DNA from: Candidatus Microgenomatus auricola
Lineage (GTDB): Bacteria; Patescibacteriota; Patescibacteriia; SBBC01
NCBI GenBank assembly: GCA_005239865.1
Contig: SBBC01000020.1
Coordinates: forward strand, 1 to 62,972
Reading direction: 5' to 3'
DNA length: 62,972 nucleotides
Shown here in pieces: positions 19,836 through 23,059 of the stretch (positions are counted from its first letter, which is position 1; each line of letters starts with the position of its first letter). The position numbers and the translations under genes are program-made. Below the pieces are notes generated by a model, which did not search any database, was not told the origin of the DNA, and saw only the letters and a list, made by a program, of their open reading frames with translations.

Positions 19836-20780
19836 ATGGTTGATCTCGCCGTCAGCCTGCTCGCGCTCGCCTCGTTCGTCGGCGTTGTCACCATCGTGGC
19901 CCGACGATTTCCAACGCTGGCCGCCATCGATACGACGAGCATCCCGGTCGAACGGCAGGGCAAGCTTAAAACCCGCTTAATCGAGCAGCGGCTGAAGCGA
20001 AAGGTCGAACTGGCGCTGCGGGCCCTCCTGGCGGCGTTGAGACCGATGAGTCACGCTTTCACGTCGTTTCTGCGACAGCGTTACGAACGGCTCCTGGCTC
20101 TCGAACGGCAATACCGAACGCGGGTGACGACGCCAACCGCGTTGAGCCCCGAAGAACGCGAGAAAAAGGACTTCGAGATCGATCGTCTCTTAACGGCGGC
20201 GCACAGCGCCCTCGACCGGGGAGCGATTGAGGAAGCGGAACGAGACGCGATCGACGTCATCGCCAAAGACCCGCGGAACGTCAGGGCTTACCGCGTGTTG
20301 GCCTCGGTCTATCTCGAGAACAAGGACTACGAACACGCCCGCGAGACGCTTGAGTTTATTATCCAGCGCCTTCACGTTGAGGATGACGAGGTCTACGCCG
20401 AACTCGGACAAGTTGACTCCGGTGAAGGAAAACTTGAGGAGGCGAAGCGCGATCTTGAGAAATCGATTGCCGTTAACAGTCAGGCAGCCGAACATTTTCT
20501 CGACCTCTGTCGCGTCAACCTGGCGCTCGGCGATACCGCGAGCGCCTTCGAATCCTGCAAGCGCGCCGTCGAAATCGAACCGAATAATCCGAAGTTCCTT
20601 GACGCGCTTGTGGAAACTAGTATTGTGTCGGGGAAGAGGGAATGGGCCAGCGAGACCCTGGAAAAACTGCGCGCCGTAAATCCGGAGAATCAAAAACTCG
20701 AGGAATTCCAGGCCCGCATTGCCAATCTCCCTAAAAAACAAAATGTCAGGCCGCGATCTCATAAGCTGGTAAGATCATAG
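19836..20780 (+). CDS. TPR-repeat protein with N-terminal membrane anchor
   Basis: 314 aa with a TM helix followed by several 34-residue TPR-like repeats (AYRVLASVYLENKDYEHA, etc.). Confidence 0.7.
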   Translation: MVDLAVSLLALASFVGVVTIVARRFPTLAAIDTTSIPVERQGKLKTRLIEQRLKRKVELALRALLAALRPMSHAFTSFLRQRYERLLALERQYRTRVTTPTALSPEEREKKDFEIDRLLTAAHSALDRGAIEEAERDAIDVIAKDPRNVRAYRVLASVYLENKDYEHARETLEFIIQRLHVEDDEVYAELGQVDSGEGKLEEAKRDLEKSIAVNSQAAEHFLDLCRVNLALGDTASAFESCKRAVEIEPNNPKFLDALVETSIVSGKREWASETLEKLRAVNPENQKLEEFQARIANLPKKQNVRPRSHKLVRS

Positions 20781-20827
20781 TCACGTCGAGACAGCTTGGC
20801 TGGTACCCCGCACCAACTTTCGCCCGA

Positions 20828-20903
20828 GCCCACGTAGCTCAGATGGTAGAGCAACTCCATGGTAAGGAGTAGGTCCGCGGTTCAAATCCGCGCGTGGGCT
20901 CCA
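20828..20903 (+). tRNA. tRNA-Thr(GGU), CCA encoded
   Basis: Hand-folded cloverleaf: GCCCACG/CGTGGGC acceptor, GCTC-AGATGGTA-GAGC D arm, ACTCC-ATGGTAA-GGAGT anticodon arm, CGCGG-TTCAAAT-CCGCG T arm, then T-CCA. Confidence 0.9.
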
Positions 20904-20926
20904 GCGAGGGCAGGCGGGGAAGAAGA

Positions 20927-20957
20927 AGGTCCGCGGTTCAAATCCACCCAGCGGCTC
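20927..20957 (+). other. echo of the tRNA-Thr(GGU) 3' part (non-foldable)
   Basis: The 19-nt string AGGTCCGCGGTTCAAATCC at 20927-20945 is identical to 20871-20889 inside the tRNA. The following bases (ACCCAGCGGCTC) cannot close a T stem. Confidence 0.6.
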
Positions 20958-21045
20958 TCGAGTAGATGCCAAAATGATCAAGCGAGCCTGATGGTAAACC
21001 CTCCGGCCGAAGCCGAACATTACATTGTCGAGAACTTTCAAGATC

Positions 21046-21132
21046 GGGTGGGTACCGAAGCGGTCAAACGGGCCTGACTGTAAATCAGGTGGCCTCCGGC
21101 CTTCGTAGGTTCGAATCCTACTCCACCCACCA
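21046..21132 (+). tRNA. tRNA-Tyr(GUA), class II, CCA encoded
   Basis: GGGTGGG acceptor, CCTGA-CTGTAAA-TCAGG anticodon arm, 15-nt variable arm, GTAGG-TTCGAAT-CCTAC T arm, TCCACCC-A-CCA. Confidence 0.9.
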
Positions 21133-21191
21133 CGCGTCAGATTCGGAAAAAGGAATGTGGTGCGGGATGGCCACCGGTCCCCGATCCAGTC

Positions 21192-21219
21192 GGGGATTCG
21201 AATCCTATCCCACCCACCA
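21192..21219 (+). other. echo of the tRNA-Tyr 3' end (degenerate T arm plus CCCACCC-A-CCA)
   Basis: GGGGATTCGAATCCTATCCCACCCACCA repeats TTCGAATCCTA and CCACCCACCA of the tRNA 87 nt downstream. The T stem does not pair. Confidence 0.55.
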
Positions 21220-21286
21220 GTTGCAAAAAAGTAAAAAAAGTAGTACTCTACATCAGCTATTGCTGATTCCCGTTCGAGCTAATATC

Positions 21287-21524
21287 GCCGGAGTAGCTCA
21301 ATGGTAGAGCATCGCTTTTGTCCCGCTCAATAACGTGGTTATCTGGTAATCGCGGGATCCTCGAAGTTCTTACAAAATCTTGCCGGGATAGCTCAGTGGT
21401 AGAGCAGCTGTTTTGTAAACAGCAGGTCGCAGGTTCAAATCCTGTTCCCGGCTCCACCCGACAAGATTTTGAGAACTTCGGGATAAAGCGGTGGTTGGGG
21501 GTTCGAATCCTCTCTCCGGCTCCA
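21287..21524 (+). tRNA. interrupted tRNA gene (Thr-UGU-like if joined 21321/21485) with a 163-nt insert in the anticodon loop
   Basis: 5' part 21287-21321 and 3' part 21485-21524 join into a 75-nt cloverleaf. It has 7/7 acceptor pairs (GCCGGAG/CTCCGGC), 5/5 anticodon-stem pairs, a GGGGG-TTCGAAT-CCTCT T arm and T-CCA. See findings. Confidence 0.6.
21382..21456 (+). tRNA. tRNA-Thr(UGU), CCA encoded (nested inside the interrupted tRNA)
   Basis: GCCGGGA/TCCCGGC acceptor, GCTGT-TTTGTAA-ACAGC anticodon arm, GCAGG-TTCAAAT-CCTGT T arm, then T-CCA. Confidence 0.9.
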
Positions 21525-21553
21525 GGCATACTCGTCAGTAAACAACCTCTTCA

Positions 21554-21715
21554 ATGTCGCAAGAAAATTTAGTCGGTCTGGCATGCGCCGAGTGCAAGCG
21601 GGTCAATTACTTCACCACGCGGAATAAGAAAAAAATCAAGGCCAAGTTGTCACTCAAGAAGTATTGTCCATGGGACAAGAAGCATACCGTTCATACCGAG
21701 GCGAAGCTCAAATGA
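21554..21715 (+). CDS. rpmG: 50S ribosomal protein L33
   Basis: 53-aa ORF absent from the ORF track because it is under 60 aa: MSQENLVGLACAECKRVNYFTTRNKKKIKAKLSLKKYCPWDKKHTVHTEAKLK. This is the typical L33 pattern (CxxC...YxTxxNKK...KLxLKKYCP...H). Confidence 0.85.
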   Translation: MSQENLVGLACAECKRVNYFTTRNKKKIKAKLSLKKYCPWDKKHTVHTEAKLK

Positions 21716-21726
21716 CGCATCAGTTT

Positions 21727-21779
21727 GGGGGTGTAGTGTCAGTGGTTAGCACGGCGGTCTCCAATCCCGCCCCAATGCT
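21727..21779 (+). other. tRNA-Trp-like 5' half (acceptor strand, D arm, CCA anticodon arm)
   Basis: GGGGGTG-TA-GTGT-CAGTGGTTA-GCAC-G-GCGGT-CTCCAAT-CCCGC. There is no T arm of its own. Its acceptor strand pairs with CACCCCT at 21875-21881. Confidence 0.55.
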
Positions 21780-21853
21780 GGGGGCGTCGTTCAACGGCAG
21801 GACCCAGGTCTCCAAAACCTGTAATGGGGGTTCGATTCCCTCCGCCCCTGCCA
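21780..21853 (+). tRNA. tRNA-Trp(CCA), CCA encoded
   Basis: GGGGGCG/CGCCCCT acceptor, CAGGT-CTCCAAA-ACCTG anticodon arm, GGGGG-TTCGATT-CCCTC T arm, then G-CCA. Close to the E. coli tRNA-Trp layout. Confidence 0.9.
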
Positions 21854-21885
21854 TTGGGGCGGGACAAGTCCTAGCACCCCTGCCA
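21854..21885 (+). other. 3' shell of the tRNA-Trp-like outer element (helix arm plus acceptor 3' strand plus CCA)
   Basis: TTGGGGCGGG (21854-21863) is the perfect complement of CCCGCCCCAA (21766-21775). CACCCCT-G-CCA at 21875-21885 complements the outer 5' strand GGGGGTG. Confidence 0.55.
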
Positions 21886-21913
21886 GGAGTCTATCTGTAG
21901 TCTCCGTTTACTT

Positions 21914-21938
21914 CGGGGCATAGCGCAGTTGGTAGCTC
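21914..21938 (+). other. tRNA 5' fragment (acceptor strand plus D arm)
   Basis: CGGGGCA-TA-GCGC-AGTTGGTA-GCTC resembles the 5' end of the downstream tRNA-Pro (CGGGGAT-TG-GCGC-AGTTGGTA-GCGC). No proper anticodon arm follows. Confidence 0.45.
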
Positions 21939-21986
21939 CGCACCACATGAGTGGTTGTCCGACGATAATTATCATCAAACAATTGG

Positions 21987-22018
21987 GTGCGGGGCAAGCG
22001 CGCGCGGCTGCCCCGCAC
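21987..22018 (+). other. GC-rich hairpin with a 10-bp perfect stem
   Basis: GTGCGGGGCA (21987-21996) pairs with TGCCCCGCAC (22009-22018), loop AGCGCGCGCGGC. Its 3' arm overlaps the 5' arm of the helix flanking tRNA-Pro. Confidence 0.6.
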
Positions 22019-22029
22019 GTCCGCTGTCC

Positions 22030-22102
22030 CGGGGATTGGCGCAGTTGGTAGCGCGCACGGTTCGGGACCGTGAGGTCGGGAGTTCGAGTCTCCCATCCCC
22101 GA
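22030..22102 (+). tRNA. tRNA-Pro(CGG), CCA not encoded
   Basis: CGGGGAT/ATCCCCG acceptor, CACGG-TTCGGGA-CCGTG anticodon arm, GGGAG-TTCGAGT-CTCCC T arm, discriminator A. Confidence 0.9.
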
Positions 22103-22112
22103 CAGAGCGGAC

Positions 22113-22165
22113 GTGCGGGGTTCGGGCGCACGAGGTCACCGGTTCGAGTCCGGTATCCCCAACCA
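22113..22165 (+). other. tRNA-Pro-like 3' part (9-nt anticodon-like loop, T arm, acceptor strand, CCA)
   Basis: GTGCG-GGGTTCGGG-CGCAC-G-AGGTC-ACCGG-TTCGAGT-CCGGT-ATCCCCA-A-CCA. The T arm is perfect and the loop keeps TTCGGG, but it is 9 nt long. No matching 5' acceptor strand was found. Confidence 0.5.
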
Positions 22166-22181
22166 AATCCATACGTCATTC

Positions 22182-22877
22182 ATGACATCACACCACAAAG
22201 CGCCCCGACACGTTGCGATCATCATGGACGGCAACCGCAGATGGGCGCGGAAGCACGGGAAACCGACATTGGAAGGCCATCGCGTCGGTTACCAAACGCT
22301 GAAGAAGATCGGCGACGCAGCGCTCGAACGGGGAGTAAAAATCCTGTCGGTCTGGGCATTTTCGACGGACAATTGGAAGCGGGCCAAACGGGAAGTGACG
22401 TTTCTCATGGGCCTGCTCGAATGGGTGCTGAAAGAGGAAATTGCCGAGTTTCACCGAAAGGACGTCAAGCTCCTCGTGACCGGCCGGATCCACGAACTTT
22501 CAGCCCGACTCCAGAATCTGATCGCCGACGCGATGAATCTCACGCGCGAAAACACCCACGGGATTTTGAATGTGCTCTTGAACTACGGAGGCCGCGAAGA
22601 AATTGTCGATGCGGTTCGGGCCATTGTCCGTGCCAAACCAGAGGCCGAAAGCGTTGATGAGAGGTTGATTGAGAAGCACCTCTACCGCTCCGAACTTCCG
22701 GATCCGGATCTCATCATTCGCACCAGCGGAGAACAGCGGTTGTCCGGCTTCATGCCTTGGCAGCTCGCCTATAGCGAGTTGGTGTTCGTCGATAAACTCT
22801 GGCCTGACTTCACTCCAAAGGATCTCGATGCCGCGCTCGAGGAATTTCGGCGGCGCGAGCGGCGCTTCGGGAAGTAG
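22182..22877 (+). CDS. uppS: undecaprenyl-diphosphate synthase (cis-prenyltransferase)
   Basis: HVAIIMDGNRRWA and RTSGEQRLSGFMPWQLAYSE motifs. Start MTSHHK at 22182, since the upstream part of the ORF covers tRNA sequence. Confidence 0.95.
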   Translation: MTSHHKAPRHVAIIMDGNRRWARKHGKPTLEGHRVGYQTLKKIGDAALERGVKILSVWAFSTDNWKRAKREVTFLMGLLEWVLKEEIAEFHRKDVKLLVTGRIHELSARLQNLIADAMNLTRENTHGILNVLLNYGGREEIVDAVRAIVRAKPEAESVDERLIEKHLYRSELPDPDLIIRTSGEQRLSGFMPWQLAYSELVFVDKLWPDFTPKDLDAALEEFRRRERRFGK

Positions 22878-23059
22878 ATCGTCGCTATCTCAACGCGACC
22901 ACGCACCCTGACGAACGCGTCAGGTAAGTTGTGTTGTCTGGAAAAAGAAAAAGAGCAGGTTTCATCTAAGTTGGACTTGACTGCGAAGTCTCAACCGGGA
23001 ATCCGCCCGCTCTTAAGGGAGGAAGTTCCAAGGCGAAGCAGAGCCCTTCGGTTCGTATC

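Follow-up and report, generated by a model that had tools for sequence, protein, structure and literature searches.

We analysed a 62,972-nucleotide stretch of DNA from Candidatus Microgenomatus auricola (the window; contig C4 of its assembly) and focused on a tRNA-Pro(CGG) gene at positions 21914 to 22165, upstream of uppS, that lies between two pieces of a second tRNA-Pro gene. The genome, G000, is a 1.0-Mb metagenome-assembled genome (MAG) of 58 contigs, 57% G+C and 99% completeness. The nearest homologues of the uppS gene of the window are in MAGs labelled Kerfeldbacteria, Uhrbacteria, Parcubacteria and Patescibacteria. A search for 20700-22900 among sequencing runs listed groundwater metagenomes only, and no RNA run. 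The parts of the tRNA-Pro locus are as follows.

21914..21934, + strand: outer 5' fragment of tRNA-Pro (acceptor 5' strand CGGGGCA, TA, D arm; cut after the D arm)
21935..21995, + strand: 'empty' palindromic element, arms CTCCGCACC... / ...GGGTGCGGGG with about 40 nt between them and no tRNA (predicted fold and sequence comparison)
21987..22018, + strand: 10-bp hairpin GTGCGGGGCA/TGCCCCGCAC, 21987-21996 with 22009-22018 (alternative pairing)
22011..22026, + strand: 5' arm of the tRNA-bearing insert, CCCCGCACGTCCGCTG (leader of the inner tRNA)
22030..22103, + strand: inner intact tRNA-Pro(CGG), CCA not encoded (ARAGORN; Rfam RF00005, 66 bits)
22103..22120, + strand: 3' arm of the insert, CAG-AG-CGGACGTGCGGGG (trailer of the inner tRNA)
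22121..22165, + strand: outer 3' fragment of tRNA-Pro (anticodon-loop TTCGGG, GAGGTC, T arm ACCGG-TTCGAGT-CCGGT, acceptor ATCCCCA, ACCA)

An intact tRNA-Pro gene lies inside an older one

The inner gene was placed at 22030-22103 by ARAGORN and at 22030-22102 by Rfam, where 66 bits against a gathering score of 29 make it a member of the tRNA family, and its CCA is not encoded, as an earlier note on this DNA had stated. That note had also described a 12-bp helix around the gene, in which GCACGTCCGCTG (22015-22026) pairs with CAG(AG)CGGACGTGC (22103-22116). The helix is present, and four more pairs (CCCC/GGGG) lengthen it to 16 bp. When 22008-22122 was folded, the predicted minimum-energy structure had the arms at 22011-22026 and 22103-22120 joined by these 16 base pairs, with an AG bulge and the cloverleaf at their tip; the predicted energy is -73.7 kcal/mol (z -6.45), and 0 of 200 shuffles folded as well. 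To judge the strength of the helix, we used mismatched leader/trailer pairs within G000 as the null, which gave a mean of -10.7 and a 1st percentile of -25.8. The leader/trailer duplex of tRNA-Pro reached -42.0 kcal/mol, the strongest among 40 tRNAs of the genome. The mature RNA would thus be flanked by a long predicted helix (16 bp, -42 kcal/mol), like the processing stems around rRNAs.

Both flanking pieces could be aligned to the intact tRNA. The upstream piece, 21914-21938, aligned over query positions q1-29 with a score of 32 and the downstream piece, 22113-22165, over q30-74 with a score of 25, compared with a 99th percentile of 21 and a maximum of 25 in 800 shuffles. The upstream piece is therefore an acceptor strand and D arm, as had been proposed. 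The description of the downstream piece held for its perfect T arm (22138-22154), its acceptor strand and its final ACCA (22162-22165), but not for a supposed anticodon stem GTGCG/CGCAC, since GTGCG is the end of the 3' arm of the insert. A similar division applies to the 10-bp hairpin at 21987-22018, which exists and overlaps the helix but is absent from the predicted minimum-energy fold of 21905-22170 (z -4.76). In that fold, 21935-21995 pairs as a separate palindrome. The tRNA-bearing palindrome is a CCCCGNAC...GTNCGGGG pair that spans 22011-22120 with a stem of at least 16. Its 5' arm can pair with the 3' arm of the empty palindrome, and this complementarity between neighbours accounts for the 10-bp hairpin.

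The outer copy is interrupted by about 186 nt, of which 74 nt are tRNA. When the outer pieces were joined by a single deletion, ARAGORN called a tRNA-Pro(CGG) at 21 of the 651 junctions tried, with 3 of 7 acceptor pairs mismatched in the outer copy, plus one mismatch in the D stem. The interruption (21935-22120) contains no open reading frame (ORF), and hence no nuclease gene of the kind expected of a homing element.

We then compared the locus with related genomes, a check that the earlier note had called for. Upstream of uppS, the Pro locus was nested in all five relatives in which it could be read (G001, G002, G005, G006 and G013); in G003 it falls at a contig end, where the sequence begins within the tRNA. 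The helices that flank the orthologous tRNA-Pro have unrelated sequences in each of six genomes. A nested Pro(CGG) was also present at two further loci (L017 and L015) among 80 uppS-neighbour loci, a set that, with only 7 tRNAs and mostly Patescibacteria, was of no use as a negative control. The arms of the empty element (21935-21995) have homologues in the CCCCGCACCACAATTG / CAATTGTGGTGCGGGG arms that delimit the Pro inserts in G002, G005 and G006, which belong to one genus, and the outer 5' Pro piece has 24-nt matches at 96% identity about 70 nt upstream of tRNA-Pro in G010 and G008, two genomes of the same order as G000. The suggestion that the fragments are remnants of a replaced Pro tRNA was therefore essentially right: an intact gene sits within an insert that interrupts an older tRNA-Pro, and relatives are alike upstream of uppS. 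Overall the earlier interpretation is partly supported. It had missed that the layout is systematic, that the arms belong to a family of inserts, that GTGCG is an arm end, and how the hairpin arises.

The other tRNA genes of the window have the same layout

All five tRNA genes of the window (5/5) carry fragments of their own tRNA on the same strand. The other four loci are listed here.

21727..21885, + strand: nested tRNA-Trp; outer 5' piece 21727-21764, which ends in CTCCAA of the anticodon loop
21765-21864, + strand: insert of tRNA-Trp; arm TCCCGCCCCAATGCT at 21765-21779, intact tRNA-Trp at 21780-21853, arm TTGGGGCGGGA at 21854-21864
21865-21885, + strand: outer 3' remnant of tRNA-Trp (T-loop end, acceptor strand, GCCA)
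21287..21524, + strand: nested tRNA-Thr(TGT); outer 5' half 21287-21321 (ends TTTGT), outer 3' half 21485-21524
CCCGCTC... to ...CTTCGGGAT, + strand: insert of tRNA-Thr(TGT), with the intact tRNA at 21382-21456 inside
21046..21219, + strand: tRNA-Tyr; tRNA 21046-21132, arm end TGGTGCGGGA at 21158-21167, outer 3' remnant 21168-21219
20806..20957, + strand: tRNA-Thr(GGT); CCCCGCACC at 20806-20814, tRNA 20828-20903, ...GGCAGGCGGGG to 20919
20920-20957, + strand: 3' fragment of Thr(GGT) (variable loop, T arm, acceptor strand; downstream alignment q34-62, score 43)

At Thr(TGT), removal of 21322-21484 would give a normal tRNA, and ARAGORN recovered tRNA-Thr(TGT) at 33 junctions. The outer acceptor stem, GCCGGAG/CTCCGGC, differs from the inner one, GCCGGGA/TCCCGGC. 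Contigs from another study contain an uninterrupted tRNA that matches both outer halves, and the acceptor stem of the outer copy in the window is also that of the functional Thr(TGT) gene in G005. The layout of the Trp locus recurs in G010 and G217 and as the middle layer of a locus in G295, and the position of the outer Trp is occupied in G009 and G020 by an uninterrupted tRNA-Trp after rpmG. In the window, an ORF at 21540-21716 that ends in ...KKYCPWDKKHTVHTEAKLK* and lies directly before the outer Trp piece looks like rpmG (L33); the same rpmG-like gene directly precedes the uninterrupted tRNA-Trp of G009 and G020. The 3' remnant of Tyr (downstream alignment q65-87, score 36) has a hairpin in place of the 5' strand of the T stem and ends in ACCA.

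Fragments of the cognate tRNA flank tRNA genes in four genomes of the class

To ask how general this layout is, we carried out a census in which every tRNA was compared by alignment with the 350 nt on either side of it, after masking of neighbouring tRNAs. Besides G000, the census covered G005 (same family, 4 contigs), G013 (same order, 2 contigs) and G032 (same class, 1 contig).

G000 (own genome): fragments at 23/39 tRNAs; own flanks positive 29/78; non-cognate 9.5%; opposite strand 2/78
G005 (same family): fragments at 31/48 tRNAs; own flanks positive 43/96; non-cognate 6.0%; opposite strand 2/96
G013 (same order): fragments at 18/48 tRNAs; own flanks positive 23/96; non-cognate 4.2%; opposite strand 3/96
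G032 (same class): fragments at 7/48 tRNAs; own flanks positive 11/96; non-cognate 2.0%; opposite strand 1/96

The fragments were collinear with the gene that they flank. In G005, 23/23 upstream fragments came from the 5' half of the tRNA and 17/20 downstream fragments from the 3' half; the corresponding counts were 6/7 and 13/16 in G013, and 4/5 and 5/6 in G032. Leader/trailer duplexes below the 5th percentile of mismatched pairs were found at 16/40 tRNAs of G000, 22/48 of G005, 9/48 of G013 and 13/48 of G032. In a sample of 301 genomes of the class, 11 of 27 tRNA-Trp loci had fragments, a count that rests on best BLAST matches and is biased to the inner allele of the window. Where an outer copy had both of its sides, a single deletion restored an ARAGORN tRNA of the same amino acid in 9/25 cases, among them the Thr(TGT) and Pro of the window, Trp of G005 and Tyr of G013, and failed to do so in 16/25.

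Two further points concern the tRNA set of G000. We did not find tRNA-Asp, Lys(CTT), Gln(TTG) or a complete Ala(TGC) in the assembly, and considered that these might exist only as interrupted genes. This idea was rejected, because G005 has all of them intact, so that assembly gaps are the likelier cause. In addition, an 82-nt 'tRNA-Pro(CGG)' at C53:18189-18270 was called by ARAGORN but not by the genome-wide search with the Rfam tRNA model; it is probably a false positive and was excluded from the counts.

Inserts share their ends, break points and inverted-repeat arms

The inserts almost always begin with (Y)CCCGC or CCCCGC after the 5' fragment and finish with GCGGG(G/A) before the 3' fragment. 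CCCG followed 15/23 5' junctions in G005 and 5/9 in G000, and CGGG preceded 11/17 3' junctions in each, compared with about 9-13% when 20-nt windows were drawn at random from these flanks. Such ends recur around Pro, Arg, Lys, Gly, Thr, Phe, Gln, Asn and Trp. Break points lie mostly in the anticodon loop (after positions 33 to 38) and also in the D loop and T loop; in the recurrent Trp layout, the whole stretch from anticodon loop to T loop is replaced. Inward of the conserved ends, the sequence of the arms varies and the two arms are inverted repeats of each other; 38 helices contain 601 Watson-Crick pairs and 40 mismatches. Mismatches of the G-T and A-C kinds numbered 8 and 6, an underpowered count that gives no RNA-strand bias. 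An insert may hold nothing (short hairpins, often in place of an arm of the outer copy, such as 21935-21995), an intact cognate tRNA, or a GIY-YIG ORF together with a tRNA.

Perfect hairpins of the form YCCCGNN-loop-NNCGGGR occur 30 times in G000, in few sub-families, and 7 of the 30 lie within 400 nt of a tRNA, zones that make up 3.5% of the genome. The CCCCGNAC...GTNCGGGG pairs number 19. G000 thus has a dispersed family of short palindromes, as expected of a system of REP (repetitive extragenic palindromic) elements or REPINs with their RAYT (REP-associated tyrosine transposase). Hairpins of this class also occur at other RNA genes: one immediately precedes tmRNA, and the RNase P RNA (464 nt, bacterial class-A type) has them at its 5' end and in its interior.

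Several further features of these hairpins are recorded here. The tmRNA (C28:6914-7346, L190; 77 bits) has the hairpin CCCCGCACCTTTTG-AAA-CAAAAGGTGCGGGG directly before it and a long CCCAGCACC...GGTGCTGGG hairpin after it. The RNase P RNA (C46:17940-18413, L193), at 464 nt against a model of 367 positions, has a large insert after model position 136 and, near position 335, a CCCGCACC...GGTGCGGG hairpin where the model has none. Its 5' end carries a 20-bp CCCCGCACC hairpin, with a loop that by eye looks to contain a promoter-like TTGACA...TATCGT. A promoter inside the inserts of the window was considered and dropped, as no sigma-70-like site was found on the + strand of 20600-22300. We also dropped the idea that the arm TGGTGCGGGG is a primer-binding site for a tRNA ending in CCCCGCACCA, because neither G005 nor G013 has such a tRNA end.

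Heavily decorated tRNA-like genes were seen elsewhere. Two tRNA-Lys-like genes of G000 (C33:1428-1650 and C33:5186-5410, L194) have an identical 5' part, poorly paired acceptor ends and three inserts each, in the D loop, the anticodon loop (CCCCG.AC...GGTGCGGGG) and the T loop; no single deletion yields a CTT anticodon loop. In G032, three tandem tRNA-Ala-like 3' units follow tRNA-Ala(GGC) (L162, C1:204770-205750). Each unit has the hairpin GTCCGATGnnCATCGGAC in place of the anticodon arm and then its own terminator-like hairpin, and the outer 5' copy, upstream of a GIY-YIG ORF, retains G3:U70; the units might be tRNA-like RNAs that are charged. In the same genome, matches to the tRNA model of 104, 118 and 133 nt (41-52 bits) beside normal tRNAs (L159, C1:135614-136200) may be tRNAs with inserts.

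Inner and outer copies are often distinct alleles, with reciprocal nesting among relatives

At the Trp loci, a type-1 gene lies within a type-2 gene, and type 2 is uninterrupted after rpmG in G009, G013 and G020. Of G002, G005 and G006, which share a genus, G006 has an intact type-2 Trp gene and the other two have a split one. Pro behaves similarly: G005 has allele A nested in B and G001 has B nested in A, while the B-type gene that an A-type cassette splits in G005 is intact in G002 and G006. Close relatives therefore hold filled and empty versions of the same target for Trp type 2 and for B-type Pro, as homing elements do. Nesting can also be deeper, since locus L206 of G295 (about 1440-1740) contains three tRNA-Trp layers, each bounded by arms of the type CCGCC.../...GGGC.

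Candidate enzymes

We considered which enzymes might move the inserts; RAYT-like Y1 transposases, minimal Slx1-like GIY-YIG nucleases and an Xer/integron-like recombinase are candidates. In G000, three of the four small GIY-YIG ORFs are flanked by an outer 5' fragment on one side and a tRNA on the other, as listed below. In four genomes together, about 8 of 17 such ORFs have a tRNA within 160 nt.

C35:358-636, - strand: GIY-YIG ORF before tRNA-Glu(TTC)
C38:5518-5973, + strand: GIY-YIG ORF before tRNA-Leu(CAA)
C49:9003-9380, + strand: GIY-YIG ORF before tRNA-Ala(TGC)

These ORFs are 81-92 amino acids (aa) long from the first Met and consist of the catalytic domain only. The one before tRNA-Glu stops within the tRNA itself, so that RNase P cleavage would, by the sequence, remove its stop codon.

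Two RAYT-like ORFs were found in G000, at C25:4975-5610 (-) and C36:7067-7735 (-). In both, a low-complexity stretch (FLFPHRRL...) separates the conserved N-terminal part from the conserved C-terminal part; the stretch in C36 overlaps a CCCCGCC...GGCGG hairpin, and a hairpin element may lie inside that coding region. RAYT matches were present in 4/5 further genomes, with no link to the degree of nesting. Three of four genomes checked have two recombinase genes each, and G005 has five, three of them in one tandem cluster. The tyrosine recombinase genes of G000 adjoin tRNA-Met and tRNA-Arg(TCT), both on contigs other than that of the window; the gene next to tRNA-Arg(TCT) shows synteny throughout the class and is hence probably the housekeeping Xer. 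G000 also has two group-II-intron-like reverse transcriptase ORFs, at C5:4922-5530 (-), with 134.8 bits against a cut-off of 300 and a GGTGCGGGGTAAACTG motif about 250 nt downstream, and at C10:45-377 (+), with an internal stop.

Palindromic cassettes and the alternatives to them

The anatomy of the loci, the fragment and duplex statistics, the conserved ends, the differences between inner and outer alleles, the split and intact versions within a genus and the multi-layer nesting are direct observations, and any explanation has to join them. With somewhat better than even confidence, we favour the reading that palindromic, REPIN-like cassettes insert into the loops of tRNA genes together with a replacement tRNA and leave the split resident gene as a relic. 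A cassette would be a GC-rich member of a lineage-specific family, with inverted-repeat arms and the outer ends (Y)CCCGC... and ...GCGGG(R), and would enter the anticodon loop in most cases and the D or T loop in others. Because insertion destroys an essential single-copy gene, only cassettes with an intact tRNA of the same identity would persist, under purifying selection; a few would additionally carry a minimal GIY-YIG nuclease ORF. Of the split resident gene, a 5' piece upstream of the insert and a 3' piece downstream of it would remain on the outside and would decay or gain small hairpins, and as the inner copy is still a target, nesting would be progressive. On such an account, 21914-22165 would be, in order, an outer 5' piece, an empty palindrome, a tRNA-bearing palindrome and an outer 3' piece ending in CCA, and the 16-bp helix around tRNA-Pro is best read as the two arms of the cassette. 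We infer that the inserts are or were mobile. The agreement between cargo and target would reflect selection rather than targeting, and the arms probably form a leader/trailer stem that is used in processing of the transcript.

A number of observations weigh against the cassettes. How a cassette acquires its tRNA is unexplained by this reading, and no transposase or nuclease was tied to the inserts in this analysis. GIY-YIG ORFs are absent from most inserts, including that of the Pro locus, and the arrangement of a GIY-YIG ORF with tRNA-Glu is orthologous in G000 and G013, which belong to two families. The RAYT-like ORF that was typed scored 70.6 bits against a curated cut-off of 80, the flanks of both RAYT-like genes of G000 have no hairpins of the insert family, and G010 has a nested Trp but no RAYT match. 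Contigs of the source sample revealed no joints and no insertion in progress. Inner and outer copies are 100% identical in G013 Tyr (39/39 and 48/48) and in G000 Phe (44/44) and Asn (37/37), which fits local duplication or gene conversion as well as invasion. Finally, some outer pieces look conserved. Over 51 nt, the outer 5' Trp pieces of G000 and G001 share 92% identity, compared with about 71% for uppS DNA; outer acceptor stems of the same truncated layout are fully paired with covarying sequences in G000, G010, G217 and G295 (four families); the D loop of the outer Pro holds a hairpin in both G005 and G013, with stem changes that compensate each other; and the arms changed in a compensatory manner between G000 (CCCGCCCC/GGGGCGGG) and G010 (CCCGCACC/GGTGCGGG). 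These signs, like the orthologous arrangement of GIY-YIG ORF and tRNA-Glu, could reflect selection on the structure of the RNA or its precursor. The signs of conservation could also come from independent splitting of different resident alleles, or from correction of palindromes by template switching, which at quasi-palindromes can mimic compensatory change.

Selection on the precursor is the core of a rather unlikely alternative, in which outer pieces and arms are selected parts of a primary transcript, a functional RNA scaffold that guides or protects maturation of the inner tRNA. Outer acceptor stem, arms and inner acceptor stem would make one long interrupted leader/trailer helix for, e.g., RNase III-type cleavage, RNase P, and 3' trimming or CCA addition. 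Such a scaffold would suit a reduced RNase set, and the competing hairpins would be alternative precursor folds. The covarying outer stems and compensatory changes just described speak for it, as do the helices that persist around the orthologous tRNA-Pro of six genomes despite unrelated sequences, the similar hairpins at tmRNA and RNase P RNA, and the predicted fold z-scores of -4.76 and -6.45. However, the arms lack a G-U bias (8 vs 6), the 16/25 two-sided outer copies beyond single-deletion repair include many with further insertions, and intact and split alleles coexist within one genus. About half of the tRNAs have neither helix nor fragments, so a scaffold is not required, and covariation of the outer stems is also expected if the resident allele of each lineage was split independently.

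The downstream 3' fragments, the commonest class in G000 (20/40 tRNAs), recall a different origin, namely that small elements recombined at the anticodon or T loop by a classical integrase, duplicated part of the tRNA as attachment (att) sites and were later mostly deleted. The sublocations known for tRNA-targeting integrases match the anticodon- and T-loop break points, tandem 3' copies exist at the Pro locus of G005 and at tRNA-Ala of G032, and the tyrosine recombinase genes of G000 adjoin two tRNAs. We nevertheless regard scars of this kind as improbable. Upstream 5' fragments are nearly as regular (23/48 tRNAs in G005) and are not a product of Campbell integration; crossover in a full tRNA copy would give tandem rather than nested genes; recombinase genes are few and one is syntenic; no element body lies between the copies, with 10 nt on the 3' side of Pro, or 18 nt counted to the start of the 3' fragment, and no ORF there; and inverted-repeat arms with conserved ends are unlike att sites. 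A still weaker candidate, which we hold to be very improbable, makes the outer gene a true tRNA with an intron that contains another tRNA and is spliced by an unknown bacterial route. It would account for the 9/25 two-sided outer copies restored by one deletion and for inserts at or beside the anticodon. On the other side, we found no group I intron core, as Rfam returned only tRNA matches in the window at the gathering threshold and in 20600-22300 at E<=1, and no other Rfam ribozyme family; EndA (PF01974) had 0 matches in G000, with a positive control in 4 archaea. Known tRNA introns are thus excluded as far as testable here. Junction positions vary (after 33 to 38, plus the D and T loops), the outer Pro of the window has the acceptor and D-stem mismatches noted above, and the intact genes of G005 include those for all the tRNAs missing from G000. 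The outer gene would also be dispensable, as its tRNA is in every case encoded by an intact copy too.

Chance resemblance or an assembly artefact would have to be reckoned with in a 58-contig MAG in which several tRNAs stand at contig ends, but is scarcely credible here. Chance is excluded by the fragment, duplex and cognate/non-cognate statistics. As to assembly, an independently assembled Logan contig of 4473 nt, probably from the source sample, covers 20846-22900 with 0 differences. The same architecture is present in near-complete genomes of 1-4 contigs (G005, G013 and G032) and in contigs from another study.

Relation to known systems and implications

Integrative elements leave attL/attR duplications, with a partial 3' tRNA copy downstream of the intact gene. 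The layout described here is alike in its downstream 3' part and in its anticodon- and T-loop break points; it differs in having regular upstream 5' fragments, nested copies, no integrase element between them and inverted-repeat arms. REPs are short GC-rich palindromes dispersed genome-wide, and a REPIN consists of two inverted conserved ends around a variable spacer. To our knowledge no REPIN carries a cargo gene. Palindromic elements of Rickettsia insert into genes, RNA genes included. The short GC-rich palindromes and RAYT-like genes of G000 resemble a REP/REPIN-RAYT system, but here the RAYT-like genes are unflanked and below the cut-off, and the perfect hairpins number only 30.

Nuclease genes among tRNA genes have a precedent in SegB, a free-standing GIY-YIG homing endonuclease of the tRNA cluster of phage T4, for which cleavage of a related tRNA-gene region is reported to drive co-inheritance of the nuclease and flanking tRNA genes (PMC2330249). 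The ORFs found here are likewise amid tRNA genes, but they have 81-92 aa, lie within a split cognate tRNA gene and are missing from most inserts; they appear closest to the minimal prokaryotic Slx1-like group (PMC1564403). In rRNA genes of the Candidate Phyla Radiation (CPR), insertion sequences are reported mostly at the top or base of stem-loops, and many are short, lack ORFs and are not introns, while some encode GIY-YIG proteins (PMC11270868). Those inserts share the superphylum and the structured-RNA targets with ours but are not known to carry a replacement copy of the interrupted gene, and the paper on them mentions tRNA 0 times (PMC11270868). Intron-containing, split and permuted tRNA genes of archaea are reported to be alike in having anticodon-loop and non-canonical interruptions with GC-rich complementary sequence at the break (PMC4390854, PMC4090602). 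They differ from the present case, in which RNase P RNA is bacterial, EndA was not found and an intact copy of the same tRNA lies inside the interruption. In the literature covered, which did not extend to supplements and subscription journals, we found no description of nested tRNA genes in CPR/Patescibacteria. This nested, lineage-wide tRNA architecture therefore appears to be undescribed, and its layout points to an undescribed kind of insertion element.

Under either reading, analyses of CPR genomes that use tRNAs to find integration sites or to judge completeness must allow for the nested layout. Standard tRNA finders silently miss outer and heavily decorated copies, and assemblies are probably interrupted at tRNA loci by the repeated halves; in this MAG, many tRNAs are at contig ends. 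Should the flanks be functional, they would reveal that bacterial pre-tRNAs can be organised in a new way in organisms with a minimal RNase set. Should the inserts be mobile, selfish DNA would colonise essential single-copy RNA genes without splicing, by bringing a spare copy of the gene that it destroys, and tRNA alleles of the CPR would be replaced and exchanged horizontally by a hidden route. More tentatively, at a little less than even confidence, we propose that the inserts form an as yet undescribed class of self-compensating mobile element: GC-rich palindromic cassettes with (Y)CCCGC/GCGGG(R) termini, a replacement tRNA and sometimes an Slx1-like GIY-YIG nuclease, by which tRNA genes across the class may have been overwritten repeatedly from inside, up to three layers at a locus. 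If this is true, turnover of the inserts would explain the unusually divergent and exchangeable tRNA alleles of these Patescibacteria.

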